From NCBI GenBank assembly GCA_049643885.1, contig JBARQV010000033.1, positions 11,229 to 75,228 on the forward strand: DNA of 64,000 nucleotides, in the 5' to 3' direction. The stretch's first letter is position 1; each line of letters opens with the position of its first letter. The translations under genes were made by a program, and so were the position numbers. Positions 6,001-56,906 of the stretch are shown here, one piece after another. Source of the DNA: Candidatus Omnitrophota bacterium (lineage in GTDB: Bacteria; Omnitrophota; Gorgyraeia; Tantalellales; Tantalellaceae). The notes under the pieces were generated by a model. It was given only the letters and a program-made list of their open reading frames with translations, was not told where the DNA came from and searched no databases.

Positions 6001-9000
6001 GGAAAGATTCCGTGAAAAAGACCGAGCGGAGCTTACCTACTTATGTTATGAAGCATTGAAACTCATGAATTTTATCAGAGAATTGAAAGCCAGAGCCGAT
6101 TCGCTGGGGAGACCACTTGTGTTGGTTGAGAATATTACGTACGGTTGGATGGCCACAATACCCATTGAAGAGGAGATCAAAGCCATGGGTGTAAAGATCA
6201 TAAAGACCAAAGCCGGATCGACCTTTGCTCACGATAATCCGACGGTTATGCACGGCTTGAATCCTCATGGCCCGGATGATTCCAAACTTTTTAGCGAAGA
6301 AGATCTGAGATATTTCGTAGAAGAACAGCCTTTGGTGTTGGTGGTGGACGGAACTTATTCGCTTGACCCGCAAAAAATGGCGCGTTTTAGAAGAAAAGGG
6401 GCACGATATCCAGATGCCCACCAGGCTTATCGTAATTATTTCCACGCCATAAGCGGAGAGCCTAAAGATAATGATTTTGATATCGATAGATTGCGACTTG
6501 GAAGCAAGCTTAAAGAAGATAATGTTTATAAGGCAGTAAGGAGAAGTGCCGAAGACATCAAGCCGGCGCCCGAAAGGGGTAATTACCAGATGAGATTCTG
6601 GTATCCGGGAAAGAAGTCACTTGGATTAAATAGCCAGAGAAAATCAAGAAAACTTTCAAGCCAATTAGATCTTATCAATTCTAAAAATACGGACGAACCT
6701 CTTTTAGATAAAATCAGCGGTCCGACATTAATTTTTTCTGTGGCTAACATGGAAGATGAGGCCATACCCGATAGTGTCAGGCAGGGGGGGATATATCATA
6801 ATTCCGCGCATTTTGACGACAAAGAACCCTTTGGGAGAACGTTTATTGATGTTACACCTTACGGTCCGAAGATCTCGAATGAATTTCAAAATGCAGCCAT
6901 CGCGGAATACAAGCGATTAAGCCAGCAATTAGGAGTTGTGCCGCCCCTTGCCCCGCCTGCCGTGATGGCGAGGGAAAGCCGCTGGGCCCAGTATGCGGCA
7001 CCTATGGCCGGCGGCGTTCTGGGTTTTCTCACGGTATTTTTATTCGGCTCGGCATTGTTGCCGGGCATATTGAGCGTCTTGCTTTTATCAGCGTATTTTC
7101 CGCTTGCGAGGCAAACGGCCCTGGCGCGTGAAGTTGCCGGTGAAACGGGCGTCGCCGCTAGGCCCGTGGATACGTTCGGGGATATTCTTGGCAACTTCGG
7201 GCCTATTATCGGTCCCTTGGTGTGGCTCCATGAATTTGTTCACCGCCTTACCGGCGTGTTGGGCGTAAAAAGGCTAGGCATATTTAGCAGATTTATGGAC
7301 GAGGCAATGGCTTATTCGGTCGAATCGGTATTCGCCATGCCTGTAGTTGCTGTTTCTTCGATCGTGTATGGGTTAGTCATGCTTTTCATGCCCCCCAGGG
7401 GCGAAGAAGCCCGCGCCCCGCCTGCCGAACCGGGGATAGATTTCGAGGGCGAGTGGTTGACTGTGCCCATGATCGCTGAACGTCTTGAAGAAGAGCCACA
7501 ACTTACAATTGCAATATGGGAAATGCTCACACCGGAACTTAGGAAAGCTGTTGAGAGCCTGCTTAGTGAAGAGAGGAAAAGGCTGGTTAAGATCCGACTT
7601 TTTATTTATGAACACCTGGCTGAACTCCAAAGCAAGGAAGTTTCGAGTGATCTCGAAGATAGAAAGAACAGCGCAAGTTTACTAGAGCGGCAAAGAAAAG
7701 TTTTTGAGATCGGACGAAAGGGATTTGAAGCTCATGGAGTAGAGCATGGTTTAAATGTTTTTCTACAGATCATGCTGGATGGGCTCATCCGGAATGAATT
7801 TAAGGGCCCGCTAAATATGGGACCAAAAGAGTTCTTTGCCGGTCCTTACGGACCGCATTATATCGTTCTTGATCCGCGCAGTGTCAAAAAACCGGGCTTC
7901 GAATGGCAAGAGAGGCAGAACCATTTATTATATCTTGTTCCAAACGGGTCGGACTACAGGTTACTAATAAGCTTGGTAGATAAAGCACGTGATGAAGGGA
8001 TCATTAAACCGGAAGACGCCGGATTCATAAAGAACAGGATAACGACTTATGACATGTTCATTGCAATGACTAAAGAGGTTTCTGTTCCGGAGGAAGTACC
8101 GGCTACAACAGCAGCTGTTGAGGTTCCTGTTGCAGAGGAAGCGGCTGTTACTACGGTATTTGTTGAGGCCCCTGCCATTGCGCCTGCTGAGGTTATACCC
8201 GAGGAAGAAGTTCTTCCCGAGGCGCAGAGGGTATACTCAGCGGCGAGGGATCTTATTCCGGTGCTCCTGGATCTTATAAGGAGAAATTCACCGACTTACC
8301 TTGTAGGGCCTTCTTTTCTGGAGGATCTGGCGAAAGATGAGGGACGCAACAGGAAGGTGGAAAGGGTACTGGGCAAGGAAGGCCACAGGATAGATGCCAG
8401 GTATTGCGGGTACGATCCGACGCGCGCGGATCCGGAAGAAGCCTGGTTTGAAGAACTTACAAAACCTGGTGGAATTCTTGACAGAGCACTCAAAAGGTTC
8501 GGTATAGACGTTGTGGAAAACCCAACGTCAAGAATGACCATAAGGCTTGTCAGGGGGGCGGATGAAGAAAGGAACCAGGACAGAAGAAGTAAATTAGAAG
8601 CGTTAATTGTGAAAAGGCTCATGGATATAAATCCTGTCTTGAGATCAATGCTTGAAACAATGAAAGAAGAAGATCGGAAAAACTGGTTAAGGCAGTACGT
8701 GAAGATAATAGATGTAGATGTCGAAGGTATCGAGCATGTGAATCCCGTGCTGGACCTCTTTGCCGATGCCGGGGCGATGGAGCTGGACAGGTACGAGAAA
8801 AAAGATTACAAGGACGAAGCCCCTGACGAGCTTAAGGAACGATTGGTCATACTGTTAAAGCTTTCCCTGGGCAGTCTGGTCGATTCAGAGAGAGGTGACA
8901 TACTCGAAGGCCTGACCGCGGGTAAGCTTTACGGGGTTTTAGAAAGGGTTTTTTCGGGGCTAGCGTATTTCGCGGTCAAAAGAATAGATTGGGAAAGTAT

Positions 9001-9060: not shown

Positions 9061-12000
9061 ATGAATTGGCTTAAGAGGGTTCACAGGGATCAAGAGATCA
9101 AGAAGCTCTTCAGCTTCCAGAGGCGGAGTCTAGCCCTTAAAGCCTGTTCAGTTATCACCTCGGTCGCGTTTTTCTTTAATATTCTTTCTTACGATATCGC
9201 CCTTTCGGGCCCCCTCCAGAAAAAACAACCGGCTACGGAAGGGCAAGCCTGGGCCATACGAGTTCCGCCGGAGTCTTCTCACGTCGGCTCCGGTGTGAAC
9301 TCAGGCCCGGGCACTCCCCAAAAGCTTACCATCAAAGGCTTTACACTGCCCGAATATCTTGGTGTGGTGACCGACAGGTTCAGTCCCCCGGCGAAGGAAC
9401 CTGATAAGATAGTGGTTTTGATACAGGACGCGCATTGTAACTATGCGGCCCAGAAAAAGATCGCCGAGATCGTCCGGCATTTCAACAAGCTCTACCGCGT
9501 GCGCGTCGTCAACATGGAAGGAGGTAAGGGCGATTATAACCTTTCGATATTCCTGGATATAGGCGACAAGAAGGTCAGGGAAGAGGTATCCGATTACTTT
9601 GTGAAAGAGGGGCAGATAAGCGGCGCTGAATACTTCGCCATAAACGATCCTTTCAGGGCCTACTTATGGGGAGTGGAAACCTCTGAACTTTACCTGGAGA
9701 ACCTTAAAGTTTACAGGGAGTCCCTTGGATACAGAGGTGAAGTCGAGTATTTCCTGGATTCGCTTACCTATATTTTGAACAATCTTAAGCGGCACATTTA
9801 TTCGAAGGAACTCTTGGATTTTGACAACGAATATTCCCGGTATAAGGCCGGCGATATCAAATTCAAGGATTACGTGAATTACCTTTTAAGCGTGGCCAAG
9901 GAGAAAAAGGTATATATCAAGAATCTCCTGCACCTGTATTTGTTATATCACTCGATAGCATGGGAAGGGGAAATAGATTTCAAGAGAGCGGATCATGAAA
10001 GGGATATCTTGATCAGCAGGCTTGAAGGCGTTCTGTCCGGGAAGGAGATGGACGAGCTTATCAACAAGACCGTAGAGTTCAGGAACAAGAGGCTTTCGCA
10101 GACCGAATTCTACGGGTATCTCCTGAAGAAGGCGGAGGAAGTGAAGCTCGACCTGGCCGATTTCCCGGAGTTCAAAAAATACCTCGGTTATATTTTCCTC
10201 TATCATGTCGTGGACAGGGCAAAAGTAATGGAGGAGATAGGCATTCTCGAAAACGCTATAAAAGGATCTCTTTACGAGAACGATAAACAGAAGGAGCTAG
10301 ACCTTCTTTCCAAGCATTTGACTCTTACAAAGAACTTTTTCGACGCCACTTTGACAAGAAGCGATTACGAATATTACGAACAGAACAAATTAGCGTTTGA
10401 AACACAGAATTACATTTCGTTTATAGAAAAAGAAGCCCCAAAGTACAAAATAACCGCCCAACTGCCTTCTGATATACAAAATCTTGATTTTCGTATGGCC
10501 GAAATGGACAAGTTCTACGAATACTCGTTCAAGAGGGACCTCGCCTTCCTCGACAACATAAAATTTAATGCGACTGAATCTCCAACATCCAACATCCAAC
10601 AACCAACATCTATTTTGATTACCGGCGGTTTCCACGCCGAAAATCTCTGTAAGTTGTTTAAAGAAAATGATATAGCATATATATGCATAATGCCGAATTT
10701 TACGAGCGAAGAAGGTTATGTTTGCCCGTATTTCGACCTCTTGGCGGGTGAAAGACCTCAAGTTGAAATGATGATCAGCGATATCATGGGCTATTCACTT
10801 GCTATAGCGAGCATACTCAGCCAGCTGGGGCCGGACGTGTATGATGAAAACGCTCGCAGGATATTCGGGCTTCATGTTCAGTGGAAACGCGCTGTGGCGG
10901 AAGGAAAAGGCGGCCTCGCGATCATGGCAGAGGATGGGAGATTCCTCGGCGCGGTCAATGCCAGGGGAGAGATCGTCCCTGAAGACAGGTCAAAAGGCTT
11001 TGAAGTGGCGCGGGTTCCGGCAGTTGTCCCGGCTATCGCTCCGGCAACTCCCGAATTGGTGGATCTATTCGGGAACTGGTTCGATCTGAATCTGGAACTT
11101 GATTATTTTAGCGGAGAGTTTGAAAGAGGTGAGGCGAAAGGGCTGGCGGCGATACAGGAAGGGGTGCAGGCCGAAAGAGGCATGTATCCCAAAGAAGAAA
11201 TAGAAGGCGGCGATTTCTATTTTGACCTGGAAGCCTTCTCTTATTTTTCAAGGGGACTTATCGACAAAGCCACTTTAGCGGAAGTCATGAGGCCTTACAG
11301 CGATAAGCTGCCCGGCCAGATAAATGTTATAGTCGTGGACAAAGGACCAAAGGCCGTAGCCAGATACGGGAACACTATAGCGATAAACCGCGCCGTGTTC
11401 GAGCTTACGCGCGGCGTCTCTCCCGTTATCCGCAATTTGATCACTATGAAACTCCTGGACACGGCCCTGAGGGCAAGCAGCGAGACCGGTATCAGGGAAG
11501 GAGAGGATCTGGGTATTTCGCTTGCAGACCTGAGAAGGGTCGGGAGCCGCGAGAAACCGGACAGGATAATGGAAGTCATACGCCAGGTATTCTCTCCAGA
11601 GTCAAAACTCGCTTCCGACGAACAGGAAGAAAATCTGATCCTGGCTTACGATTATGACCAAAAATATATTGCTCAAGGCAGTTTCAACGAAGAGATACTG
11701 AAACAGGCCATTAAAAGAGGTTTCACCACGGTCATAGTTAGATTTTTGGAAGGCGACGTCATAGGAGGACAGGTCGAGGTCATATTCGCGAACAAGTCGG
11801 ACGTGCTAGTGGAACGGATAGATATGCTTCCCGAGAATATGGATGTTCTTTTCTCGGCCGTCGGCGAGAACATGGAACCGGGCTCCGTATGGCGCTTCAC
11901 GCGGCGTTTCCTGACATACGATATTAAACGACGAGCGTTTCTCGCAAAAGAACGCCCCAGGATAATGACCTACGAATTGGAGAGAAAACTTGAAGTGTAT

Positions 12001-15000
12001 CGCGAGAGGATCGGCGACAGGGAGCTTGAAGGGCGGAATTTCGGGTATGAATACAAGATAGAACGTGACGAAGCGAGCCCTCTTGGCAGGAAGGTAAGGA
12101 TAGACCTGACAGAGAACCCCCCGGAAGGGTTTGAGAGCGCGAGGCCTGTGATCAAGGCGAAAAAATATACTTACGAGGACATCTATGAATATTTTAATTT
12201 TTATCACAAATACTGGATGCCCAAAGAAGGACACGGTGATTGGGAGCTTAGCAGGTTCCTGAGGGAGATAGTGGCCAGTGACCTCACTCCTGAAGAGAAG
12301 CGCGAAAAGATACTGGGGTTCTTCGAAGAGTTGACCCAGGGGCAGATGTATATGGATGGCAAGGGCGTGCCGGCGCCTGATAAAGACCCGCTTGAGCTCA
12401 TCAACGGGGAGATAAGGGGCACCCCGGGACGGCTTCCCTTTGAGGAAAGGCTTCTAGCAATGCTCAAATCGCCCCCCGAAGTGCCCCCTGTCACAAGACT
12501 GGCACCTGGTAAAGGTGTCCTGGATATTGTCGCAAGGGGTGTTTTCAAGGTAACCGATCCCTTTATGGCCAGGGAAGATGCTGAAGATCTTGTCGTTCCT
12601 GTTGTTGAGGAAGGTATTATGTTTCTCGCGCTTGCGCCGTATTTATGGGGCGGCGCGCCGTCTTTGGTCGTTCTTTTTGGGGCAGTACTTTATTTTCTTT
12701 TGAGGGCAGGGTTTATTGCGGCTCACGCGCTGCAGGACAGGGCGCCCCCGGGGAGAAGAAGGACGATCTTTGAACGAATTATCATCCCCGCCCTTATATC
12801 TGTTCCCGCTTTCTCACTTCCTGTTCTGGCATTATTAGGAGCTTCTCCCATAGCCCTTGGCATTGTTGCGGGCGCGGTGACACTTTTACATATGGCCGCG
12901 AACCGCTATGTTACTTTTGCAGGCTCAAAGTTACAGAAGGCTGTTCTTGGAAGAAAGGTCGAGCGGTATATCGGAGAGACGGGGACAGATGTCGAAAGGT
13001 TTAAGGTAGACATCGGGGATGACAGGGAATCGTTACAAAAGTTTATGAAGAAAGTAAAAAGTGTTTTTATGACCGAAAGGGAGGTCGCATCATTGCAAAA
13101 CGTTCTGGCGCACGGGGAGGATTCGCTTGAAAAAATGGGGAGAGTGGGCAAACTTTGGCAGGCCGTGCGTTACGGGAACGTGAGGCAGAAAAAAGCCGAT
13201 TTTCTTAGAGGATTCCTGGAAGAAATAAACAGCACCGGGACCTTTAGTGTAGGAAGGACCGAAACTTTAGAACCAAGAAGCGTAACAAGGACCAAGAGTG
13301 ACATGGAAATGATCGAAGAACAGCGTAAGGTATACGTGGAAGGAGTGGAAGAAATATTCAAGCGCGTAGAATCGGGCCAGGAATATGATACCGGGGAACT
13401 GGCTGGGTTATTCGACAGGATCATACTCAATGTCCTGACACAGTTCGGTATAAAGGATGACGTTATGGTGGTAGGCCTCGGGAGTTACGGTAGAGGAGTC
13501 GTCCCGATAGGGTCGGATTGTGATGCCGTGTTCATAGTAAGAGGCGCCTTTCCCGGGCTTGTAAAAAAAGATATACAGGAAAGGGTGGTCTGGATACTGG
13601 AACAGATCGGCCTGGACGTCGATCCGGGAGCTCTCCTGCCCGGGGACCTGAAAGATTGGCCTACCATGGACCAGCTCAGGGCGGCATTCGATGAAGGGGT
13701 CGAAAGCGGGGAGCTTGTGGGTATAAATATGCTGTTCCTCGCGGATAACAGGCTTGTTTCGGATGCCGATGAAAAGTCGATACCGGAGTTCGGGGAATAT
13801 TGCAGGATGAGAGACGAAATAATCACCGGGAAGCACCCGGCATTTATCGCTCACCTTGTCCTGGAAATAGCGAATTTCCTGAGGATAACCGGCGGAACAA
13901 CTCCGGAAGCGGCGGGACCTTCAGCGGGCCTTATAGATATATATTACAGGTACGGGGATGATAAAGAAAGAATCATGCAGGAGATCGGCAAGAAGATAAA
14001 ATCTTTATATACAGTTGAGGATGGCGAGCTGAGACTAAGCCCCTTGGGCGAAAGTGAAATACTCCGCGACATCAGACAATTCAACGTTAAACAGGATTCC
14101 GGCGGCATGAGGAGCCTTGACTTTGTTTTATGGACAGGGAGGGTCTTGAGCGGGGTGAACGACCCCGATCCTTACAAGATCATTGAGCAGTTGTCCGCCG
14201 AGTACGCGACCGGCGAAGAAAAAGAAATATTGAGGGAAACAATGGATTATTTCATCAAGTTAAGGTCCGTTATTAATTATATCTCCTCTTTGGAAAAGGC
14301 CGAGGGGACTCCCGAGTTCATCGAACATGACACTATAGATTTCAACGATATCAGCAGCATTGAGCAGATCGTCAAAGTCATGGAACCGCAGAACGAGCTG
14401 GTGCGGAAGATCATGTCATTAGAAGGACAGGAACAGGATATAGAATCCGAACTGAGGAAACTAAGCACTATAGATACCGAGGATGTAGAGGAGAAAAGAA
14501 GATTATCGGGAGAGAGGCGGTCAGTTCGGGGAGAATTGTTGAAATCACGCAAAGAATTGGCAGGTGAGTTCCGGGGAAAGGTCAATTCCATGAGGGGTAA
14601 AATAGCGGCAATCGGTTTAAAGGCACTGGATAAATATCTTGTAAGCTTTATAAGGGAAGGCAAGATAAGGGATGAAGACGCTTTGTACGTGATGGTCCCC
14701 ATCGGCCAAAGGGCTCTTCTTGACCTGAAAAGAGAACTGAAACACCGGGGAGAGTATAGAAAAGACCTTGCCAGGGTAATGCGCGAGCGATATCGCGCTT
14801 CACGGGCTGATCTCGGCAAAGGCGTCCTGGGATTTATCGCGGCAGGTGTTTACAAATTTACTGATACCGTCATGGACCTTTTTGGCCGTGAAAAGACGCC
14901 CGGCTACAGGGCTTTTGTCGAAGATTATTTTATTCCCGTTATAGAAGAAGGCGCGATGTTCCTCGTTCTACGCTCCTGGGGGACGTTGCCGTATTTTCTC

Positions 15001-18000
15001 ATCCGGCCTGGGTTCATACTGGCTCACGCGTTCCAGGACAGAGCTCCTCCCGGGAGAAGAAGGACGATCTTCGAACGGATCATCATCCCCGCCCTTATAT
15101 CAGTTCCTGCCTTTTCACTTCCTATTCTCGCGCTTTTGGGAGCATCGCCTGTAGTACTTGGAGTTGTCGTAGGTGCGGTGACACTTTTACACATGGCCGC
15201 CAACCGCTTTGTAACTCTAACAGGTTCCAGACTCCAGAAAGCCGTTCTGGGAAAGAAGTTTGTCCAGCCTCCCGTGAGAAAGGCCAGGATCATTTCAATA
15301 AGAGGAGAAAAGGTTTCAGATACGTATCCTGTTGTGCCTGTAACTGTTCGCGAGGAAGCGGAACCGGTGCCCGGAGTCGAATTTATAGCGACGGAGGAGA
15401 TACTCGATGAACTGATGACCGATTATCCCGAAAGGATCCTCAGAGACCGCGGGATGGACGCCGAACAATATTCAAGGCTCGCTGAAACAGCCGTTGTCAC
15501 GAACAAAAAACCGATCAAAGTCGATCCCAGCGGGAGGGAATGGATAGGTGAGCGGTATATCATCGGGCGGACCCCGTCGGGCGAGGATATTGAACTTGGC
15601 AGAGGCGGCGTAGCTGTTGTTTATTATGGCCTTGATACTCAAAGTGGAGATGAGATCGTTTTAAAGGTTCCTGAAGAAGAAAGAGCTGTTCCCGGTAAAG
15701 AAAAATTACCGTTTGAACTTAAGAAAATGTCATTATTACGCGAGGCGGCATTCATAGAATACGTGAAGGAGCAGGAAAAACAAGGCCGTGTGGATCTTGA
15801 GGGCGGGGTGGTAGATTTACGCGACGCAGGGGTCTACAGGGGGGCGTACCTTGATGATAAGGGGCGTCCGACCGGGAAGGAATACACCAATTATTATATA
15901 GCAATGGGTTACGTTCATGGTTTGACGCTGGGGGATCTTTTGAACCAGCGCGGTCCACTTGCGGAAGACGAAGCCAGGGCTCTTTTTGAAAGGGTATACG
16001 ATACAACAAGAAAACTCCACAAGATAGGCGTGATCCATATGGACATAAAATCGGATAACATCTTCATTCCTCTGGTCAACGGCAAGCTTGAGTTCGGGAA
16101 AGCCGTGCTGGGAGATTTCGGCTTTTCGATAAAAGTCGATAATGTCGATGGCCAGTATGTTCACGATTTCACGTACGGGACTGAAGGGTACGTACCGCCG
16201 GAGGGGGGCGTAGGTGTATTTTCAGGGAGGAACGACATGTACGCCCTGGGCATGACGCTTTATGAAATGATGACCGGCACGGTAATCGAAGATGGCGTCA
16301 AGGCGGAATTCACGCCCGACATGGAAAGTGCGCTTCCCGCCGATCTGGTCGCTGTTGTCAGATTGTTGACACAGGAAAACTGGGAAGAGTCGTCAGTTCT
16401 GGCGGAAGGCGTAACCGGGATATTGGAGAGAGGAAAAGTCGCCATAGCGGACGATGTCGTTCTTGAGGATTTTGAAGGGTTTGAACTCGAGGACATGGTC
16501 TTAAAGCTCATGAAGCCCGGTCAGAAATACTCAAGGGAGGAATTTAAAGCCGAGGTAGAGAAACTCAAGTTATTTTTAACGCGTGCGATAGGGGTCAATC
16601 TCCGGCAGATGGCCGGTGATATTTCGGAAGCGAAGTTCGGCGCCGGCAAGCGCGACGGATTCAAACGTTTCATCGTTAAAAAGATCCGGCATGCCGGGCG
16701 CGGCGATTACAAGCACGCGTTAAGGGTCGAGGCTGATACCGACCAAGGCCGGCAGGTCTTCGCGGTCAAGTTCCTGAAGCCCAAAAGGCCCGAGTATACT
16801 TTTGAGGGTTTTAAGAAAATGATAAAAACAGAATACGAAAATAGCAGGAGATTAAGTGAAACGGGTTTAGCGGCGGATTATTACGGGGAACCTTATTATG
16901 TCGGTGAACGGTTCGATGAAAAGTTCTCAAAAGGATTAGAAGAGCATGGCATCCTGGGCTTGCTTGTGGGTGAATATGTGGAAGGTACGCCTGTCAGTGA
17001 GATATACGAAAGAGATGAAAGGAAAGAAGCGTATCGCGGATTAGTGAAAGCCACGGTCCGTCTCTGGCTAGAGACTTATGATCCTGAAACGCAGGCCGGT
17101 CTTGTTTTGTATGACCTTGCCGGGAGGAATTATGTGCTTGAGGATGGAACGGGCAGAATAAAGACCATAGATCCCGCGTTTTTGGATCCGTTCAATGTTG
17201 ATTACCTGAGAGACATGATAAGCGCTCTTCTCATAGCGGAATTGGCCATGGAAAAAGAAGGTATAAGGTTCGACGCGATGCCGGGCGGCGCGGACGAGAT
17301 GTATTTCCTTTCGGCGATACCGGAGGAGATAAATGATTACCTGAGGGAAAAAGGCGATAGTTTGGACGAAAGGAAAAAGAGGGCCGTCATGGAGCTTCGT
17401 GGAGCCGAGGCGTTAAGGGACATCCAGGTAGCCGTTGAGGAAAAGATCGACCTACAAAAAGCTATTGCTGACGCGTCAGGCAGAGGCGATGTGATACGGA
17501 TGGCCGAGCTAAGCGACGGAAAAGAACTGGAAATACATGACGCTAAAGCGTTAGTGCGGGACGATGAGGAGATGTTCAAAGAACTTCTGGCGGCGGTCCA
17601 GAAGGTTGTAGCTTCTTCTTTCGGGCCTTCAAAAGCATACGGGCTTGCGGCTGAGTTGAGGATAAAGCAGATCCTCCAGGAGAACGAGGTGATGATAGCC
17701 GTTGTGGGTAACGAAGTGATCGGCTTTCTGGCATATCAGTTCAAGCCCGGGGAAGCCCGGAGTATTTTAGACTGGTTTGCCGTGATGCAGGAGCATCAGG
17801 GCAAAGGCATCGGCTCGAGGATGATGGACGAATTCATGGAGGTGTCACTGAAAGCCCGCGAGACCGGCATCGAAAAGGCCTGGTGGCATTCATGGGACGA
17901 AAAGTCAGACGATTTTTATATTGGATATTTTAGAAAAAAAGGAATAAAACCTGAACAGGTCGGACGTAATTTTACTCTTGGACTGGATGCAGTTGGCGCG

Positions 18001-19431
18001 GCAATGGCTCCTGACCACGGGGCGATAATGAGAGGGCTCAGGCCGGAGGACGTGGAAGAAGCCATAACCGGTGATGTCGACAAGAGCACGTTGTCCGAAG
18101 AGTTCAAGGCGATCGAAGAAATGCTTGACGATAGCTCATTAGAAAGGAACAGGACACTTCGCGAGCTGGCAGATAAACTGGAGATCCCATGGGATCTTAT
18201 GCTTTCAAGGATCAAAAAAGCCAGGGACGACCTTCTGAAAGGAAATAAAGCATTGAAGGAGTTTCCCGCCATTGTCCGCGGTCTCGATGAATATGCTCTT
18301 GGCATGGCCACGGAAGACAAAATAACTTACAGCACAGAGATCCTCGCGATGTTACCCGCGCCCTTGAGAGCCGAATATGTCCTGCACGAAGCGATCTGTT
18401 ATTATTTCCCGGGATTGGAGGGGCACCAGACCGCCAGGCAGATACAGATGGTCCTGTTCCCGCGGAATTACGGGAACCTGACGCCTGAAGAAAGAGAAGA
18501 ACTTGAGGGGACAGAGGCGCTGACAGGTGACTTAACGTTGTTTTTAAGCGCATTTATCGATGTAACGGCCCCGCCGCTTGAAGGCCCGCCGGCTGAAAGA
18601 AAAGCGCAGGAGATCTACGCCCAGGCCAGGATGCTGGCCCCGGCGCTTGCCGATGCCGTAAGGCGGGGCGCGCCGACGTATGACATAGGGCCGTCATTTT
18701 TCAGGGACATGGCCCGGGACGAGCAATGCAATAAGGAAGTAGCGAGGATACTCGGCAAAAAAGGCCACAATATTTACGCCAGGCATTGCGCGTTCGACCC
18801 CACGAAAGATACTGCCGCGAAATGGTTCGAAAATATGGTCGAAGACAGGCCCGGGGGAGTCCTTTACGACATGCTGGAGACTTTCAGCCGGGACGCCTCA
18901 GTAGACCCAAGGACCAGGATGACTATCAGGCTTATAAGAGGGCCGGATGAAGCAGGGAACAAGGCAAGAAGAAAAGATATGGAAGGTTTTATTTTAAGGA
19001 ACCTTAAGCTCATGAATCCCGATCTGGCAGAGAGACTGGAGACGATGAGCGAGGCCGAAAGAAATGAGTGGTTCAACAAACATGTGAAGGTATTGGACGT
19101 GGATGTCGGGAATATTGAACACGTCAACCCTGTGCTGGATCTTATTACGGACATCGGCGTCATGGAGCTTGACCGCTACGCGAAGCACGATTACGAAGGT
19201 AAAGCTCCGCGGGACCTTGAGGAGAACCTTGTCAGACTATTGAACCTTTCGATAGGGAGTTTTGTGAATATCGATACGAAACAGGCGCTTAAAAAGGTCT
19301 CCCGTAAAGATCTATACAGGGTTTTAGCAGCCCTTTTTACGGGAAATATGTACATTATGGTAAGGAAGATCGACTGGGGCAGCATAAGGGAGAAGATCAG
19401 GGCCCAGAATGCTGTCCTTAAATCGTTGTAA
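9061..19431 (+). CDS. Giant multidomain protein (3456 aa): N-terminal signal/anchor + conserved 'QDAHCN' module, two polytopic TM modules, GlnE/GlnD-like nucleotidyltransferase, Hanks-type Ser/Thr kinase, second atypical kinase-like fold, GNAT acetyltransferase-like segment, conserved C-terminal domain
   Basis: ATG at 9061 preceded by GAGGT 6 nt upstream; 14 nt after stop of upstream ORF; 10.4 kb uninterrupted ORF; multiple recognisable catalytic motifs in-frame. Confidence 0.9.
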   Translation: MNWLKRVHRDQEIKKLFSFQRRSLALKACSVITSVAFFFNILSYDIALSGPLQKKQPATEGQAWAIRVPPESSHVGSGVNSGPGTPQKLTIKGFTLPEYLGVVTDRFSPPAKEPDKIVVLIQDAHCNYAAQKKIAEIVRHFNKLYRVRVVNMEGGKGDYNLSIFLDIGDKKVREEVSDYFVKEGQISGAEYFAINDPFRAYLWGVETSELYLENLKVYRESLGYRGEVEYFLDSLTYILNNLKRHIYSKELLDFDNEYSRYKAGDIKFKDYVNYLLSVAKEKKVYIKNLLHLYLLYHSIAWEGEIDFKRADHERDILISRLEGVLSGKEMDELINKTVEFRNKRLSQTEFYGYLLKKAEEVKLDLADFPEFKKYLGYIFLYHVVDRAKVMEEIGILENAIKGSLYENDKQKELDLLSKHLTLTKNFFDATLTRSDYEYYEQNKLAFETQNYISFIEKEAPKYKITAQLPSDIQNLDFRMAEMDKFYEYSFKRDLAFLDNIKFNATESPTSNIQQPTSILITGGFHAENLCKLFKENDIAYICIMPNFTSEEGYVCPYFDLLAGERPQVEMMISDIMGYSLAIASILSQLGPDVYDENARRIFGLHVQWKRAVAEGKGGLAIMAEDGRFLGAVNARGEIVPEDRSKGFEVARVPAVVPAIAPATPELVDLFGNWFDLNLELDYFSGEFERGEAKGLAAIQEGVQAERGMYPKEEIEGGDFYFDLEAFSYFSRGLIDKATLAEVMRPYSDKLPGQINVIVVDKGPKAVARYGNTIAINRAVFELTRGVSPVIRNLITMKLLDTALRASSETGIREGEDLGISLADLRRVGSREKPDRIMEVIRQVFSPESKLASDEQEENLILAYDYDQKYIAQGSFNEEILKQAIKRGFTTVIVRFLEGDVIGGQVEVIFANKSDVLVERIDMLPENMDVLFSAVGENMEPGSVWRFTRRFLTYDIKRRAFLAKERPRIMTYELERKLEVYRERIGDRELEGRNFGYEYKIERDEASPLGRKVRIDLTENPPEGFESARPVIKAKKYTYEDIYEYFNFYHKYWMPKEGHGDWELSRFLREIVASDLTPEEKREKILGFFEELTQGQMYMDGKGVPAPDKDPLELINGEIRGTPGRLPFEERLLAMLKSPPEVPPVTRLAPGKGVLDIVARGVFKVTDPFMAREDAEDLVVPVVEEGIMFLALAPYLWGGAPSLVVLFGAVLYFLLRAGFIAAHALQDRAPPGRRRTIFERIIIPALISVPAFSLPVLALLGASPIALGIVAGAVTLLHMAANRYVTFAGSKLQKAVLGRKVERYIGETGTDVERFKVDIGDDRESLQKFMKKVKSVFMTEREVASLQNVLAHGEDSLEKMGRVGKLWQAVRYGNVRQKKADFLRGFLEEINSTGTFSVGRTETLEPRSVTRTKSDMEMIEEQRKVYVEGVEEIFKRVESGQEYDTGELAGLFDRIILNVLTQFGIKDDVMVVGLGSYGRGVVPIGSDCDAVFIVRGAFPGLVKKDIQERVVWILEQIGLDVDPGALLPGDLKDWPTMDQLRAAFDEGVESGELVGINMLFLADNRLVSDADEKSIPEFGEYCRMRDEIITGKHPAFIAHLVLEIANFLRITGGTTPEAAGPSAGLIDIYYRYGDDKERIMQEIGKKIKSLYTVEDGELRLSPLGESEILRDIRQFNVKQDSGGMRSLDFVLWTGRVLSGVNDPDPYKIIEQLSAEYATGEEKEILRETMDYFIKLRSVINYISSLEKAEGTPEFIEHDTIDFNDISSIEQIVKVMEPQNELVRKIMSLEGQEQDIESELRKLSTIDTEDVEEKRRLSGERRSVRGELLKSRKELAGEFRGKVNSMRGKIAAIGLKALDKYLVSFIREGKIRDEDALYVMVPIGQRALLDLKRELKHRGEYRKDLARVMRERYRASRADLGKGVLGFIAAGVYKFTDTVMDLFGREKTPGYRAFVEDYFIPVIEEGAMFLVLRSWGTLPYFLIRPGFILAHAFQDRAPPGRRRTIFERIIIPALISVPAFSLPILALLGASPVVLGVVVGAVTLLHMAANRFVTLTGSRLQKAVLGKKFVQPPVRKARIISIRGEKVSDTYPVVPVTVREEAEPVPGVEFIATEEILDELMTDYPERILRDRGMDAEQYSRLAETAVVTNKKPIKVDPSGREWIGERYIIGRTPSGEDIELGRGGVAVVYYGLDTQSGDEIVLKVPEEERAVPGKEKLPFELKKMSLLREAAFIEYVKEQEKQGRVDLEGGVVDLRDAGVYRGAYLDDKGRPTGKEYTNYYIAMGYVHGLTLGDLLNQRGPLAEDEARALFERVYDTTRKLHKIGVIHMDIKSDNIFIPLVNGKLEFGKAVLGDFGFSIKVDNVDGQYVHDFTYGTEGYVPPEGGVGVFSGRNDMYALGMTLYEMMTGTVIEDGVKAEFTPDMESALPADLVAVVRLLTQENWEESSVLAEGVTGILERGKVAIADDVVLEDFEGFELEDMVLKLMKPGQKYSREEFKAEVEKLKLFLTRAIGVNLRQMAGDISEAKFGAGKRDGFKRFIVKKIRHAGRGDYKHALRVEADTDQGRQVFAVKFLKPKRPEYTFEGFKKMIKTEYENSRRLSETGLAADYYGEPYYVGERFDEKFSKGLEEHGILGLLVGEYVEGTPVSEIYERDERKEAYRGLVKATVRLWLETYDPETQAGLVLYDLAGRNYVLEDGTGRIKTIDPAFLDPFNVDYLRDMISALLIAELAMEKEGIRFDAMPGGADEMYFLSAIPEEINDYLREKGDSLDERKKRAVMELRGAEALRDIQVAVEEKIDLQKAIADASGRGDVIRMAELSDGKELEIHDAKALVRDDEEMFKELLAAVQKVVASSFGPSKAYGLAAELRIKQILQENEVMIAVVGNEVIGFLAYQFKPGEARSILDWFAVMQEHQGKGIGSRMMDEFMEVSLKARETGIEKAWWHSWDEKSDDFYIGYFRKKGIKPEQVGRNFTLGLDAVGAAMAPDHGAIMRGLRPEDVEEAITGDVDKSTLSEEFKAIEEMLDDSSLERNRTLRELADKLEIPWDLMLSRIKKARDDLLKGNKALKEFPAIVRGLDEYALGMATEDKITYSTEILAMLPAPLRAEYVLHEAICYYFPGLEGHQTARQIQMVLFPRNYGNLTPEEREELEGTEALTGDLTLFLSAFIDVTAPPLEGPPAERKAQEIYAQARMLAPALADAVRRGAPTYDIGPSFFRDMARDEQCNKEVARILGKKGHNIYARHCAFDPTKDTAAKWFENMVEDRPGGVLYDMLETFSRDASVDPRTRMTIRLIRGPDEAGNKARRKDMEGFILRNLKLMNPDLAERLETMSEAERNEWFNKHVKVLDVDVGNIEHVNPVLDLITDIGVMELDRYAKHDYEGKAPRDLEENLVRLLNLSIGSFVNIDTKQALKKVSRKDLYRVLAALFTGNMYIMVRKIDWGSIREKIRAQNAVLKSL
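13390..14290 (+). other. GlnE/GlnD-type nucleotidyltransferase domain inside ORF 9061-19431
   Basis: VVGLGSYGRGVVPIGSDCDAVFIV matches hG[GS]...[DE]h[DE]h nucleotidyltransferase motif with downstream helical domain typical of GlnE/GlnD-like enzymes. Confidence 0.55.
15550..16300 (+). other. Hanks-type Ser/Thr protein kinase domain inside ORF 9061-19431
   Basis: GRGGVAVVYYG (Gly loop), IVLKV (VAIK), HMDIKSDNIF (catalytic loop), GDFGFS (DFG), GYVPPE (APE), DMYALGMTLYEMMTG. Confidence 0.75.
17600..17900 (+). other. GNAT acetyltransferase-like segment inside ORF 9061-19431
   Basis: IGFLAYQF...FAVMQEHQGKGIGSRMMDEF resembles GNAT motif A (Q/R-x-x-G-x-G/A) with preceding beta-strands. Confidence 0.5.
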
Positions 19432-19446
19432 TATAAGAGGTGTGTG

Positions 19447-22400
19447 ATGTTCAGGTTAAGATTTTTAGGACATGATCTTATTAATAAGGCGATAAGCCTC
19501 ATGCTTGTATTTGCCTTTTTCTCCGCCTTTGTCGTTAAGGACACATGGCCGGTAGAGGACATCGGCGGATTCAGACTGGAGGAAGTTGTGACGGGCGAGC
19601 TTGCGCCGATCGACGCGGATACTTTCACCATACCCGATTACCTGGCGAGCGTGCGGGATTCATACAAGGGTTCTTCGAACAAGGTCATCGTACACATCCA
19701 GGACGCCCACTGTAATTACGGCGCGCAGAAAAGGGTATCGGAAATAATAAATTACCTCAAGCAGCAATACCGGATAAGTGAAGTCAACCTCGAAGGCGGC
19801 AGGGGCGATTACGATCTTACGGTCTTCACGCGTATCCCCGAGAAAGACGTGAGGGAGAAAGTCGCCGATCTTTTCGTCCGGGAGGGAGCATTAAGCGGCT
19901 CGGAATATTTCGCCGTAAATAATCCCGGTGAAGTGTCGCTGTGGGGCGTGGAGGATGCCAGGCTGTATATGGATAACCTCAAAGCGTACAGGGACTCACT
20001 CTCATATAAAGGCGAAGTCGATTCTTGCCTGAAGACCCTTTCGCATATTTTGAACAATCTCAAGCAGAAGATCTATACCGAAGAACTTTTTGATCTTGAC
20101 CTCAAGTATTCACAATACAAAGCAGGAAATATCGGCTTCAAGGATTATCTTGTATATCTCCTGGCCAAGGCTAAGAATAACGCCGTAGATATCAAAAGAT
20201 ATCCTAATGTCTATCTCCTTGAACAGTCCCTCCAGCAGGAAGAAGCGGTGGATTTCAAAGAGGCTACTTTCCAGAGAGACGAACTTGTGAAGCGGCTGGA
20301 AAAGATGCTGCCAAAGCGGGCGCTGGAAGAGCTGGTAATGAAGACAGTCGAATTCAGGGCCAAAAGACTTTCCCAGTATGAATATTACGAACATATTTTA
20401 AAGAACGCGAATATAGTGAATATAGACATGGAGGATTATCCCCGCCTCAGAGAATATATCGTCTATATCTCCCTTTACCACGCGATCGATAAGCTCGCGG
20501 TGATGGCCGAGATCACTTCTCTTGAAGACACCATAAAGGGTATCCTTTTCCAGGACGATATCCAGAAGGAGCTGAGTGTCCTCTCCAAAAACCTGGTATT
20601 GACCAAAAATATCTTCGACATAGAACTGACCAAAGAGGATTACAGGTATTACAGGGAGAACAGGTCTTCCTTCAGAGCGCGTAATTTCACCGCGTTCATC
20701 GACCGGGAGGCGCCTAAATACAAAATAGACGCCAGGCCCGATAAAGGGATCGAACGGCTCGACGATCACCGGGAAAGTATCGAGAAGTTCTTTGCGGTCT
20801 CCTTCGACAGGGACCTTGCCTTCATGAAAAATATCCGGTTCAAGGAACAGGCTGAAGGCATAGAGGCCGCTGTGATAGTTACCGGCGGTTTCCACACCGA
20901 GAACCTGTCTGAATTATTCAGGAAAGAAGGGATATCGTATATTTCCATTATCCCGAACTTCACTAACGAAAAGGGTTACGAGTGCCCATATTTCAAGATC
21001 CTGGCGGGCGGAGAGACGGATATCGAAAAAACGGTCGATTCTGCATTCTCCGCGTTACAGGTCCCAAGCATGCTTACCGAACTCGGCATCGAGGCAGGCG
21101 GCGAAAGGGAAGTGAACAGGTTCAAGTTATCCGCGAGGATCGCCGAGGCGATGATAAGAGGGAATTCTTTTATCATCAAAACGCCTTTTGAACTGGTGAC
21201 TTTCAGAATGGAAAACGGCAAGGTCGTGTATGACGTGGAAAAGCCCGCGGACCTGGCAAGCGCCAGTTGTGATGTCGTGGTCTCTGATGTCGGGCCGCTA
21301 AATTACCAGGCGCAGGAAGAAGTGGTAGATGAACCCCTAAAAGAGGCATACGATGAAGGCAGGTATAAGAGCGTTTTCGGGGAACCCGGGAAAGATCTGG
21401 ATAAGGTTGTTGATTACATCAGGAATGTCCTGGGCCTTGGAGAAGTCGCTGACCGGCTTGTTGTCTTGCAGAGGGCCGGGAGAGTCAACCTGGTGTGGGG
21501 AAGGCCCGGGGAGCCGCTGGGCAGCTTCAAGGGGCACGCCGGAAGGATGGGTATTCATATAAATAATGACCTTGCGAAGACGCCTGGGCAGATACAGGCT
21601 GTCCTGATACATGAGGCGATGGCGTATTTTTTTCAGCTGGGACATGATTTTAACGAAAACGTGATGATAGCGTACGCAAAAGGATCGGGAGCCAGAGATA
21701 CAGCGGATCTGCGGAGGGCATTAAGCGGCGCGGAAATGCGTCCCGTCGCCGAAAGGACAAGGGAGGAAAGGGAAAGAGTCGGCGAGGATTATGCCGAGCC
21801 TGTCGGGGTAGCCGCGTTCAGCCTTACCGGCTTTCTGCTAAGGGCACAGACGTCCGCCGAGCCTGTCCAGGCGATGATCGCCCAGGCAAGGGACCTTTAT
21901 AACCGCGGTATGGTACAAGATGCGGTTTCATTGGCCGCGGCAGCTGTCAATTTTATCAGGGACCAGTTTGAGGACGTTGACGACCCGGACATATTCGGTG
22001 CCATAAGGGCCTTTAAGGATTTTGAGAAGAATGTTCCGATGCAGGTGCTTCTGGGAGTCCTTGATACGAATTACGACGCCTTCCGGTCTTTGTGGGAGAG
22101 GTTCGATACCGGCCGCGCGCAGGATTATGGCAGGGACGTCCTGAAGACAAGGATAGAGAACGAGGATATGCCGGATTATGTCCGCGTGCGGGCATTGGAA
22201 AATGAAAATTTCATGAAACTTTGCCGCGAAATGTTCGGGGATGCCGTGGCAGCCGAGTATCTTGAGAGTCTTCCAAAATGGGGGGATGCCGCGTATGATG
22301 TGGCAGGGATAAAGGATATTGAAAAAAGCGATATCCCTTCAAAACAGAATGCGATCAGGGCCCAAAGGGAAAAAAGGATATGGGTCAAGGACAAGCGTCA

Positions 22401-25400
22401 GTCGTATGATATGGGTGTGGTCAATGGCGACCCTAAGAACGACAACGGGCTTTTTAGTGGAGAAGCGTTTGAAGAAGCCGTACGGAGAGTATTGGAGGGC
22501 GGTAGGGATGCCCGCTCCAGGTGGGAAAGTCCTGACCCGGAGAACGCCATGCCCAGGCAGTTCGACTTTGACCGGTTCTGGGAGATCTCCGAGATGCCAT
22601 GGGCGGATCTTGTTTATAACGTTTACGTGCTACTGGTCCAGCAAAATGTCATATTTGGCAGGTTCATAGAGGCATCAGATACTGGAAATAAAATAAAATC
22701 CATGCGAAGGACCCTGGAGATGTTCATGGAAGAGGGGATAGCGAATGAAATAATAGGGAGGACCGAAGCGGAAAGAGATGAAATCATTAAGCTGGCAATA
22801 AGGTTCGAAAGCGCGTGGAATCAGGGAAACGCCGCGGAAGGCCGGCAAGTTGTTTTCGACACGGAAGACCTTGTGCACAGAAGGTTCGCCGATATGACGG
22901 AAAGGCTCTATCTTGCTTTTGCGGAGGCGATCGATTATTTAAGAACACAATCCGGACCGGTAGCGCCGGATGAAATATTACGGAGGATAGCCGAGAGCAT
23001 GCATTTGCGCGATCTGTCCGGCATGGGAAGAATAGGAGCGAATGAATTAGGCTGGATATTTGATGAATTTCTCAATGAAGAAATGCTTGAGAAGTTACGT
23101 ACCGCCGGTAAGTGGGAAGATGCTGCCGGAAGGCACGCAGCCGAACTTCAGAACATTTTCATGGCGAAACTTGCGAAATTTTCCGTTTTCGGCATGGAGG
23201 GCATCAAAAAGTCGGAATTCAGGGCAAGACACAAAGGGCCGGGAGGAGCGATAGAGAGATGTTACAACGATTTAACCACGGCATTAAGGACCGGGGCGGT
23301 TTCTTCGATTCCCGATTTTTTTGACAATGAATCCAATATAGAAGATAAATATGGCCTGCGTAAGGGGGAAGCAAGGCTTCTCAGCCACTGGGTGAGCATT
23401 CTTTTAAGGGGAGAGATAGCTAAGGCCGGCGAGATGCCGACGGAACCCGTAAAGAAAGCCATGACCCCGCTTGCACGGTTGGGAGTAGGGGCGTTCACCA
23501 TGGGCGGCATGAACGTTATTTGCGATGAGAAACAATTTCTCGAAGACGCCAAAATGCTCAGGGAACGTCTCAGGGGAAAAGAAAAAGATCCAGATGAAAC
23601 AAGAAAAGTTCTTGCTGATTTTGTCCAGGAAAGATATACAGCAATGCAAGGTGCGGATGCCGCGGGAAGGGCCAGGGAAAGGGCTGTGAGGTTCCTGAAT
23701 GGGATCGATGATGTTTACATGGCTCAGACCGCCCGGTTTATTACAGATCTCGCGGATGAAAAGCCCGATGCGCTCAAGGAACTTCGAAAGCTTACGACTA
23801 AAACAAAACTGAGCGAAAAAGGCTATATGGTGCCGCACGAATGTGTTTTTAAAGTCCCCGTGTTAAGCGCTGAGGAAACGATCTTTAAGTTCGAGATCGA
23901 CAGCTCGGCGAACCTGGATGAGCTGTCCGGAAAGTTGTTCAGGAGGGGTATCGGGGGCAGAGTCGTAGCAATTGATGATGCCAGGGCTTATCTTTCAGAG
24001 CTGAATGCCAGGCAAGGAGGGAAGTATGTGGTTATTAGGAGATTCGGGGAGGTGAGAGCATTGGCTGGCGGAGGAGAAGCGACTTTTATGTCTCTGGTAT
24101 TCCCGAACGGAGAAATACTTGAGGTGCCGGCGTTGCTTTATACTGATCTTGATACCGGTAAGAAAACCCCTCTCAGCGGGGCATTTAAAAAAGCCGACAG
24201 AAACGAAAGACTAAAAGGAACCCTCGAGGGCATAAAGGCACTTCTCGGCGGCCGCATTATAGATACGGACGTAATAGAAGGCCTTTCGTCCGCGTTGGAC
24301 GGCAAGAATGTTTTTATAGTCAGGCAGGAAAGATGGGATACGTCTCAAATGAAAGACGGACAGGAAGTATTCCGCGAGGCAGCGAAGGGAACAAGGCCCC
24401 GTGATGTGCTGGACAGCGCCGAAGCGAACATAAATGACTTGATGAAAATGAAAATGCAGATTGCCTCCTTGAGGGCTACCGCTCTTGGGGTTACCGCCGA
24501 AGGGACCAGGTTCTATGACGCCCGGTCTTTGCTTGATGTGGACGGGGAACTAAGGCCCATTCTTGCGCTGGAGATGTACAGGGTAGCAGCCGCGGCCGCT
24601 GACCCGAACTATGATCCGAATGAAGAAGTAACTGAGCTTATGCTGAAAGATTTCATGGAAGCTATTGGCAAGAACCAGGCCATTGTAGCCTTCAAAGATG
24701 GAAAACTTACCGGGGTTTTGACCTTTTCCGAAAGAGGCATAGCGGTGGAAGTGGTCAGGTTCGGGGTCTCGCCTCAGGCGGGTGATGACTCAGTTATAAG
24801 TAATATCAGAACTTTGCTTATGGACCAGGCGATGGATCTTCTTCTGAGGAGGAGCGTGGATGTGGTGCAATCCGTTATGTTGACGCCGACTTTAGCGAAT
24901 CTGGAATTTTACCAGGATTATTTTCAAAACAGGATCGGGCAGGGAGATCTGAGAGATATGGAATCAGAGGTGCGGGAAAGGCAATATGTTGTTCGCTTGA
25001 GGCCGCAGGTTACCGGTGAGGGGCTGATAGCCGGCGGGGTTTACAGGAGGAACAGGGCGAAGGCGCGCGAAAAGGTAGAAGAGCTTAGAACTGAACCGGG
25101 CGCGGCGGCCGTGAAACCGGTAACCGACAGGTGCGCGTCTCTTTTAAAGGATAAATGGGCTGCTGTCGAAGCGGCCCTGAAGAGAAGGGGTGTTCCCCAG
25201 GACCAGATCGACAGGGCCAGGCAGGCTTTAGAGAGCCCGATGACCATGTTTGGATTTTTTAATGCCTTGGTAGAAAATGCGGATGACTATATTCTGGGAC
25301 AGGACAACGCTCTCGCGGTAAATATCGTTGAGTTTCTTGCCGGAAAAGGGGATCTTCTGGATGAATACATACTGCATGAAGCGCTGGAAAGGATCGACGA

Positions 25401-29262: not shown

Positions 29263-29484
29263 TAGAGAAGTTAGTATTTCAAAAAGCAAGCTCAATTAAT
29301 TTGTATTCCTTATATATTAGGTGTAAACTAAAATTAGGGTACATATATCTAGCTTGGCGTATAGATAACCGTAAGCTTGGACTTAGGTTAGAGGATATGT
29401 CTGGTCTAGGTTGTGTGCCTTTTTTATAGGCTAAATAGTAAATAGTTTTGAAAAGTATTAATACAATTGTTTGCGAGGTGCGTC

Positions 29485-56849: not shown

Positions 56850-56906
56850 ATAGTCAACTTACAAGTTAAGAGATAAAATATCAAGAAGGACTTGTGAAAG
56901 CGGTTA

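Follow-up and report, generated by a model that had tools for sequence, protein, structure and literature searches.

What does a protein kinase do in the middle of a giant protein that begins with an export signal? The question is raised by contig JBARQV010000033.1 of Candidatus Omnitrophota bacterium (GenBank assembly GCA_049643885.1), of which positions 11,229 to 75,228 of the forward strand were analysed; this stretch of 64,000 nucleotides (nt) is called the window below, and all positions refer to it. Its gene G2 encodes a protein of 3456 amino acids (aa), for which an initial annotation made from the sequence alone had claimed an embedded Ser/Thr kinase domain of the eukaryotic-like (Hanks) type. 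The domain proved to be a genuine Hanks kinase. As to its role, we consider it tentatively, with a rough probability of 0.45, to be exported effector-type cargo that acts where ATP exists outside the cytoplasm of the producer, likeliest in or on a host or prey cell.

Identity and catalytic residues of the G2 kinase

A Pfam scan of G2 returned PF00069 (Pkinase) over aa 2178–2412 with 85.9 bits against a gathering cut-off of 31.7 (E 3.9e-24). This match is far beyond chance, and a Ser/Thr kinase domain of the Hanks type, with the eukaryotic protein kinase (ePK) fold, is encoded. The interval first assigned to it, 15550–16300, corresponds to aa 2164–2414 and covers the catalytic core through helix αF. 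Translation of the G2 frame contains all the core motifs that had been named (Table 1), in the order given for them. In phmmer searches the best PDB sequence matches were StkP and PknB (E 2e-14 to 5e-12), with each motif opposite its counterpart: GRGGMADV and VAVKV of StkP aligned with the Gly loop (G2180-R-G-G-V-A-V-V) and with the IVLKV of K2202, and the P-P-E2381 and the subdomain IX D2392 of G2 aligned with PknB and StkP. The best partial NCBIfam matches of the region were PknB/Stk1-type kinases.

Alignment with 25 kinases placed E2228 (the αC Glu), D2328, K2330, N2333, D2352 and D2392 in nearly invariant columns (E79, D179, K181, N184, D203 and D243 in segment numbering), and K2202 likewise occupied such a column in the alignment of bona fide kinases. 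The Lys of IVLKV and the catalytic Asp of HMD, the two positions whose conservation the initial annotation had proposed to check, are both intact. All residues expected to serve ATP binding and phosphotransfer are present in the predicted protein, and because K2202, E2228, D2328, K2330, N2333 and D2352 lie in nearly invariant columns, the domain is not an obvious pseudokinase; the loss of catalytic residues that would mark it as one was not seen on alignment.

The DxKxxN loop and GTxxYxxPE are signatures of Ser/Thr-type kinases, and the G2 domain has the DxKxxN loop, a full activation segment and the G-T-x-x-Y-x-x-P-E segment. The Arg of HRD is replaced by Met (H2326-M-D2328-I-K2330-S-D-N2333), with the Asp, Lys and Asn kept, and the enzyme is therefore a non-RD kinase; non-RD kinases elsewhere do not depend on activation-loop phosphorylation. 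Structure modelling, which had also been proposed as a check, gave the same answer: in the AlphaFold2 (AF2) model of aa 2150–2800 most of the catalytic core has a predicted local distance difference test score (pLDDT) above 90, and Foldseek matched the model to the kinase domains of ULK1, IRAK4, Pim1 and CaMKII with E values of about 1e-11 to 1e-12.

The likeness to PknB of Mycobacterium tuberculosis and StkP of Streptococcus pneumoniae comprises the Gly loop, the VAIK Lys, the αC Glu, HxDxKxxN, DFG, APE and the subdomain IX Asp, all in the same order. In contrast to these enzymes, the G2 kinase is non-RD, has inserts (located after β3, in addition to an extended β4–β5 hairpin), has no recognisable αG–αI and is without PASTA or other sensor domains; moreover, it lies 2160 aa into a giant with a signal peptide, whereas they occupy the N-terminus of a receptor kinase with a single span.

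Closest relatives and the divergent C-lobe

The kinase was searched together with the atypical kinase-like domain that follows it (PKL2, described below) in an exhaustive comparison with 1.84 billion representative proteins. The sole match over the whole tandem was P0001, an Omnitrophota giant (E 8e-110, 34% identity), besides which 211,521 representatives matched the query at E<=0.001. A k-mer-prefiltered search with the same query returned generic kinases only, at no more than 36% identity, and since it missed P0001 it is uninformative on orthologs. Identity of the G2 kinase to ordinary kinases is about 24–35%, and the clusters of the best exhaustive-search matches contained a mixture of Omnitrophota and Chloroflexi multi-kinase proteins, with no clear donor lineage. 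Kinases of defence systems (BREX PglW, MADS6) and of lanthionine synthetases were also considered and set aside, the resemblance being limited to the generic kinase core and far below the cut-offs. The kinase itself is an ordinary further member of the bacterial Hanks family, of a kind that existing annotation pipelines pick up as a matter of routine, and relatives carry the name 'protein kinase' at NCBI.

All sequence features of PF00069 were found in the G2 kinase except a recognisable GHI subdomain. The Pfam Pkinase match ends at position 199 of 263 of the hidden Markov model (HMM), a generic HMM of bacterial kinases is matched up to 216 of 289, and residues 267–315 of the AF2 segment have a pLDDT <50. 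The alignment had been trimmed there, and because it was the generic kinases that were trimmed in this part, the low C-lobe score may be partly an artefact. The unrecognisable αG–αI region, its poor model and the fact that P0001 is the only close ortholog among the 1.84 billion representatives are what a dead or repurposed pseudokinase, retained as a scaffold or nucleotide-binding module, would lead one to expect. We nevertheless regard such a fate as highly improbable. Every catalytic residue is kept; the conservation of these residues in about 14 of 19 kinase domains from divergent family members, at <35% identity, argues for selection on catalysis; and minimal kinases of the Bud32/RIO type, of which weak Bud32 NCBIfam matches were obtained here, are active without a GHI subdomain.

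The kinase as cargo of an Omnitrophota carrier family

A GAGGT ribosome-binding site stands 6 nt upstream of the ATG of G2, the stop codon of the preceding giant open reading frame (ORF) lies 14 nt before the ATG, and a protein of identical sequence is predicted from 6 public contigs that were assembled independently, including GCA_049644745.1 (146 kb), GCA_049642145.1 and Logan SRR28062510/11, so that G2 is not an assembly artefact.

A search with the whole protein returned 273 homologs, which have in common only the first 15–19% of the query, at 38–55% identity; the 120 of them listed are all 1900–6000 aa long, and the named ones come nearly all from Omnitrophota. The common part, about 550 aa long and referred to here as the N-module, is N-terminal in 124 of 124 family proteins examined, with a median start at residue 61. 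At the opposite end, an iterated HMM detected a C-module of about 230–270 aa in 102 family proteins, 0–11 residues from the C-terminus, and the proteins without it are mostly partial records. The Pfam cargo varies among the homologs and comprises Pkinase, ABC1, GNAT, PPDK_N/PEP-utilizers, HATPase_c, metallophosphatase, M48, methyltransferase, cNMP-binding, HEAT and TPR domains.

To map the family, one genome per GTDB species was scanned for the motifs TGGFH[TS][ED]N[LI] or QDAHCNxxAQ, which located 451 family loci in the species representatives. The 78 loci listed, often several to a genome, are all titled Omnitrophota or, for some metagenome-assembled genomes (MAGs), 'uncultured Planctomycetia'. 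N-modules under the latter title (binchicken MAGs; loci L005–L008, L010, L014 and others) are 50–59% identical to Omnitrophota ones. The Planctomycetia titles probably reflect a difference in labelling and not a wider phyletic range. Judged from sequence, the carrier is an Omnitrophota-specific family of giants in which a Sec-type signal and the N-module, mostly accompanied by the C-module, enclose a variable enzyme cargo.

Hanks kinase domains were present in 15 of the 127 family proteins examined. The K/E/D/K/N/D set of catalytic residues is kept in roughly 14 of 19 family kinase domains, and nearly all of these domains are non-RD, the HRD-Arg position being taken in the other family kinases by L, A, C, G or N in nearly every case. 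The kinase is one of several interchangeable enzyme modules in a family framed by the N- and C-modules.

Topology and the side on which the kinase acts

The description of G2 as a secreted or membrane giant in the initial annotation is borne out by a Sec-type N-terminus and two hydrophobic modules of four helices each. The signal of G2 has a basic n-region, a hydrophobic core at aa 24–42 and DIALS↓G where the family has an AWA↓A cleavage motif. Among 120 family N-termini, a hydrophobic core was found in 113, a net-positive n-region in 109 and AxA just after the core in 85 (AWA in 63); they look like cleavable Sec signals. At a threshold of 1.5, 31 members of the family lack any hydrophobic segment beyond the signal; among them are proteins with PPDK-like, HATPase_c, cNMP-binding, ABC1 or Hanks kinase domains as their recognisable cargo. 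Seven relatives (P0025, P0028, P0057, P0060, P0068, P0070 and P0092) carry a kinase after the N-module without any segment of hydropathy >=1.5 between the two, and because no membrane span separates them, the kinase is predicted to be exported in these proteins. A conserved Ser/Ala-rich helix follows the N-module; with a median hydropathy (KD19) of 1.06 and no charge bias, it is unlikely to be a hidden transmembrane (TM) span that returns all cargo to the cytoplasm. In G2 the membrane modules have four strong helices each, an even number that would keep the kinase and the N-module on one side of the membrane.

According to the reading we prefer, the cargo, including the kinase, would reach the exported side of the inner membrane of the producer. 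The kinase would then work where ATP is available outside the cytoplasm of the producer, most plausibly within a host or prey cell or at its surface, and would phosphorylate target proteins on Ser/Thr with no need for activation-loop phosphorylation, while the N- and C-modules would form a common frame for export, processing or delivery, functionally like the frame of MARTX or polymorphic toxins. Export of the kinase fits the predatory or parasitic lifestyle proposed for Omnitrophota. A further argument for it is the expectation that all members have their C-module in one and the same compartment. The initial annotation had suggested a role on host or prey proteins or in autoregulation, to which the family-level topology gives some support, short of proof.

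A number of points weigh against export as effector cargo. ATP and acetyl-CoA are unavailable in the periplasm. Fatty-acid, ETF and SMC genes make up the neighbourhood, with no delivery machinery encoded nearby, and the Pfam scan of G2 revealed neither RTX repeats nor an autoprocessing protease, nor any known translocation domain. Kinases usually dock their substrates with the help of the αG–αI part of the C-lobe, which is unrecognisable in G2. Finally, the flanks and the central loop of the G2 membrane modules are very basic, and each module is preceded by a weakly hydrophobic segment, h0 (KD17 0.96 and 1.24), which could add an odd span.

Because of these very basic flanks, the positive-inside rule would place the nucleotidyltransferase (NTase) and kinase regions in the cytoplasm, and the kinase may then be a membrane-tethered cytoplasmic enzyme similar to a receptor kinase. 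Only the N-terminal ~1100 aa would be exported in that case, the first membrane module together with a fifth span would return the chain, and the NTase, kinase, PKL2, GNAT and C-module would modify proteins of the producer itself, with a periplasmic N-module sensing or processing something. We hold this arrangement, the main rival of export, to be rather unlikely, although several features favour it. The module flanks and the h2–h3 loop (QDRAPPGRRRTIFER) are strongly basic, as in cytoplasmic loops, with the qualification that the N-flank is basic in module 2 but not in module 1; h0 is clearly hydrophobic in G1 and P0004, which gives five spans; all cargo enzymes require cytoplasmic cofactors; and such a layout is the usual one of bacterial Hanks kinases such as PknB. 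A 2026 preprint deems the regulatory Pfam content of Omnitrophota long proteins compatible with the cytoplasmic face (bioRxiv 10.64898/2026.06.07.730766). However, h0 of G2 itself is only weakly hydrophobic, different numbers of spans would be required of the two module copies, and the helix after the N-module is not TM-like. Furthermore, given the 31 span-free members and the seven with the kinase directly after the N-module, the C-module and the kinases would end up in differing compartments across paralogs. The same puzzle, cytoplasm-type enzymes predicted to lie outside, is described in a published DeepTMHMM survey of Omnitrophota long proteins.

Other modules of G2 and the possible substrates

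Table 1 Features of G2 and of its kinase domain, with window positions.
Feature	Residues of G2	Position (nt)	Strand	Basis or remark
G2 whole gene, kinase-carrying multi-enzyme giant	3456 aa	9061..19431	+	ORF list and translation
Sec-type signal peptide or signal anchor	1–49	9061..9207	+	Hydropathy, homolog N-termini
N-module	86–640	9316..10980	+	Common to all family proteins examined
Membrane module, copy 1	1126–1300	12436..12960	+	Four hydrophobic helices
Probable GlnD/GlnE-like nucleotidyltransferase region	1414–1742	13300..14286	+	Sub-threshold matches only
Membrane module, copy 2	1898–2067	14752..15261	+	Intragenic duplicate of copy 1
Hanks-type Ser/Thr kinase domain	2164–2464	15550..16452	+	Pfam envelope aa 2178–2412, nt 15592–16296
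Gly-loop GRGGVAVVYYG	G2180	15598	+	
IVLKV	K2202	15664	+	
HMDIKSDNIF	D2328, K2330, N2333	16042	+	
GDFGFS	D2352	16114	+	
GYVPPE	E2381	16201	+	
PKL2, second, atypical protein-kinase-like domain	2520–2800	16618..17460	+	hhalign, AF2, weak PDB matches
GNAT acetyltransferase	2873–2953	17677..17919	+	Pfam Acetyltransf_1 (PF00583)
Module of ~185 aa	2985–3170	18013..18570	+	Common to family proteins P0003 and P0050
C-module	3188–3456	18622..19428	+	Iterated HMM, alignment

The initial annotation had placed an NTase and a GNAT domain next to the kinase. The GNAT domain stands, with 36.4 bits against a cut-off of 20.7 (E 7.2e-9) and an intact acetyl-CoA motif, QGKGIG, which starts at aa 2913. The NTase is less certain: the matches to GlnD are sub-threshold (NCBIfam PRK03059, E 8e-4, 17.5 bits; Pfam GlnD_UR_UTase, E 0.003, 14.8–18 bits vs a cut-off of 21) and a profile search of the PDB gave no match for the region, while a GS...DxD motif is found as GLGSYGRG...SDCD at aa 1472–1488, the G[SG]...D.D motif being GLGSYGRGVVPIGSDCD.

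PKL2 follows directly after the Hanks kinase and carries the motifs GRGDYKHA, AVK (K2570), YDLAGRN (D2685, N2690) and IDP (D2704). It matched no Pfam model at E<=10. An hhalign comparison with a kinase profile gave a probability of 68.5% (E 4.6e-5), in register over 170 columns; the AF2 pLDDT is about 85–95; kinases make up 16 of its 17 weak, sub-threshold PDB profile matches; and across four homologs D2685 and D2704 are invariant, N2690 is kept by three, the fourth having it shifted, and either K or R occupies the β3 position. These four lines of evidence, namely hhalign, AF2, the weak PDB matches and the kept catalytic and metal Asp, point to a kinase-like fold for PKL2. Among the 1.84 billion representatives, homologs of this domain are confined to P0001 (with two copies), P0006 and P0145.

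The DxxxxN catalytic loop of the adjacent PKL2 is typical of small-molecule and atypical kinases, and Pfam families of the APH/ABC1/Kdo type match related family proteins, both of which would suit phosphorylation of a non-protein substrate (a sugar, a lipid or an antibiotic-like small molecule) at the cell envelope. The Hanks domain itself, however, has the DxKxxN loop of protein kinases, a full activation segment and the GTxxYxxPE P+1 motif, and a non-protein substrate is to us the least probable of the readings weighed here.

The company of the kinase bears on another reading, in which it acts mainly in cis, autophosphorylating the giant or phosphorylating the neighbouring NTase, PKL2 or GNAT, and thereby switches their activity or triggers processing, with no foreign substrates. 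It is covalently joined to several other enzymes; a kinase and a GNAT domain occur together in G2, P0001 and P0025; and an absent or divergent αG–αI docking subdomain suits a tethered substrate, for which docking is unnecessary. Yet the kinases of the family pair with many cargo sets and are almost the sole recognisable cargo in P0092 and P0039, and activation-loop phosphorylation does not itself switch non-RD kinases, which makes regulation in cis a decidedly unlikely explanation.

The two membrane-module copies are 66% identical as protein and include a 267-nt DNA stretch that is 78% identical; the module is also present in G1 (window ~2933–3478). Its four helices bear invariant EE, RxxFxxxH and HxxxN, motifs which we take to recall an intramembrane protease of the CPBP/Rce1 type (EExxxR, FxxxH, HxxxN/D); PF02517 (CPBP) matched 0 of 9 members, and the CPBP likeness is at motif level only. 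Neither Pfam (E<=10) nor a profile search of the PDB gave a match for the module.

The segment at aa 2985–3170, which has counterparts in P0003 (54% identity) and P0050 (34% identity), is another shuffled cargo unit; aa 641–1125, compared with the family proteins, are unique sequence. Pfam and NCBIfam scans at E<=10 gave nothing meaningful for the N-module, aa 641–1125, the membrane modules, PKL2, aa 2985–3170 and the C-module. The enzyme types that G2 carries as cargo (a weak GlnD-like NTase, the Hanks kinase, PKL2 and GNAT) modify proteins or macromolecules using ATP/NTP or acetyl-CoA.

Fold of the N-module and features of the C-module

The invariant motifs of the N-module in G2 are IQDAHCNY (aa 121–128), NMEGG (aa 151–155) and TGGFH..N (aa 521–528), and the residues invariant throughout the family are QDAH, NLEGG, GAE, RD and TGGFH..N. 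AF2 modelled residues 45–510 (window ~37013–38410) of G6, the minimal paralog of 1103 aa, with a pLDDT of 85–95, as a parallel β core flanked by helices and interrupted by a helical insertion of ~290 aa. The invariant residues lie where strands end or immediately beyond, or else on the flanking helices, and comprise a His, Glu, Glu, Arg and His from QDAH, NLEGG, GAE, RD and GGFH, respectively.

No Pfam (E<=10) or PDB sequence match was obtained for the N-module, a PDB profile search with the whole-family profile was empty or spurious, and Foldseek comparison of the G6 N-module with the PDB gave no significant match (E 0.11–2.4 in the top 40). Among these 40 non-significant matches, Bcr135 (3b55, 2rad; erythromycin-esterase-like) holds ranks 2, 5 and 40 and HopBA1 (5t09) rank 23. 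Entries 3b55, 2rad and 5t09 are listed as members of the TIKI superfamily, whose site consists of 2His/2Glu and a conserved basic residue (PMC6254334). The parallel sheet core of the N-module weakly resembles that of TIKI/TraB/EreA/ChaN proteins, and its invariant His/Glu/Arg set fits the 2His/2Glu plus basic residue pattern, whereas its core is split by the helical insertion and the fold matches are non-significant. The N-module may possibly have a TIKI/EreA-like hydrolase fold, as far as the model indicates.

Further C-modules are found in the window at 8240–9043 (G1), ~25537–26403 (G3) and ~39560–40189 (G6). The module ends, at the very last residues, in a motif of the L.I..ID..SI.EW......V..SL type. 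It had no Pfam match (E<=10) and no PDB profile match, and the AF2 model of G6 has low confidence there (pLDDT <50 after residue 570). Because its position is fixed at the C-terminus, the C-module is suggested as a possible sorting or assembly signal.

The gene array and its surroundings

G2 belongs to an array of five tandem giants of one family on the same strand (G1, 8–9046; G2, 9061–19431; G3, 19444–26406; G5, 29467–36831; G6, 36881–40192), in which the gaps between G1, G2 and G3 are only 12–14 nt. The N-module, preceded by a signal peptide, is present in G2, G3, G5 and G6 and the C-module in G1, G2, G3 and G6. The 5' end of G1 is cut by the window; its full protein has 3957 aa and carries a C-module and a membrane module.

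Inside the array, G4 (26545–29262) encodes a 905-aa signal-peptide protein without a Pfam match, the last ~80 residues of which resemble the end of a protein beside the family gene in locus L037 and, loosely, the C-terminal motif of the family. A further giant ORF in frame 2 (56870–64000, at least 2377 aa) continues beyond the window; its product bears a P-loop (GDPGTGKT) and a signal peptide of the AWA type, and no N-module motifs were seen in its first 400 residues. Nearly all large genes of the window, every giant included, are on the + strand. GC skew is positive in every 2-kb bin of positions 1–64000, and the cumulative skew rises monotonically.

Relation to known systems and significance

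Giant multi-enzyme proteins of Omnitrophota with a signal peptide and TM helices, the 'Archaeovorins' and related proteins, have already been described (bioRxiv 10.1101/2023.11.21.568195, bioRxiv 10.64898/2026.06.07.730766, PMC10066038). The published proteins share with the present family the phylum and the combination, on one chain, of a signal peptide, TM helices and unrelated enzyme Pfams (GNAT, HATPase_c, PPDK_N, methyltransferases). They differ in being at least 10,000 to at least 30,000 aa long and classed by Pfam content, whereas the present family has 1,100–6,000 aa and is framed by N- and C-modules. The passages of this literature that were consulted give Hanks kinases no special attention and make no mention of the N-/C-module frame, of a tandem of a Hanks and an atypical kinase or of kinases on the predicted exported side; these last three are the parts worth following.

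In MARTX toxins such as RtxA1 of Vibrio vulnificus, conserved ends likewise frame a variable array of effectors that use host-cell cofactors; this likeness is one of logic only, with no homology. The MARTX effector RRSP is a TIKI-superfamily enzyme (PMC6254334); the TIKI-like domain, a cargo in MARTX, would be part of the conserved frame in the G2 family, and the N-terminal Sec-type signal of G2 contrasts with the C-terminal type I secretion system (T1SS) signal of MARTX. That G2 is itself a MARTX protein was rejected, since it has a Sec-type signal and the whole protein has no HemolysinCabind, RTX or Peptidase_C80 match at E<=0.1.

Translocated effector kinases that phosphorylate proteins of another cell include YpkA/YopO, LegK1–4, NleH/OspG, SteC and HopBF1. 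Unlike G2, these are small stand-alone substrates of type III or type IV secretion systems (T3SS/T4SS) from pathogens of eukaryotes, and they are likened to it by description only. Kinases of the YpkA/LegK/NleH/SteC/HopBF1 type were absent among the top sequence or fold matches listed, and no T3SS/T4SS is evident here.

Taken alone, the G2 kinase is one more divergent bacterial Hanks kinase, and it is more useful as a handle on the function of Omnitrophota giant proteins. At ~300 aa it is assayable and has obvious dead mutants, and it can therefore discriminate between delivered effectors and membrane-tethered self-regulators. A wider reading, which is speculative and which we think unlikely on the whole, is that the family is a new, phylum-wide effector carrier of Omnitrophota, in which the frame of a TIKI-like N-module and a C-module would deliver interchangeable cytoplasm-type enzymes into host or prey cells; under the same reserve, its cargo would comprise non-RD Ser/Thr kinases, atypical kinases, acetyltransferases, nucleotidyltransferases, PPDK-like and GHKL ATPases and cNMP-binding modules. 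If true, this would be a new protein-delivery platform, MARTX-like in logic but unrelated to MARTX, and it would underpin a predatory or parasitic nanobacterial lifestyle.

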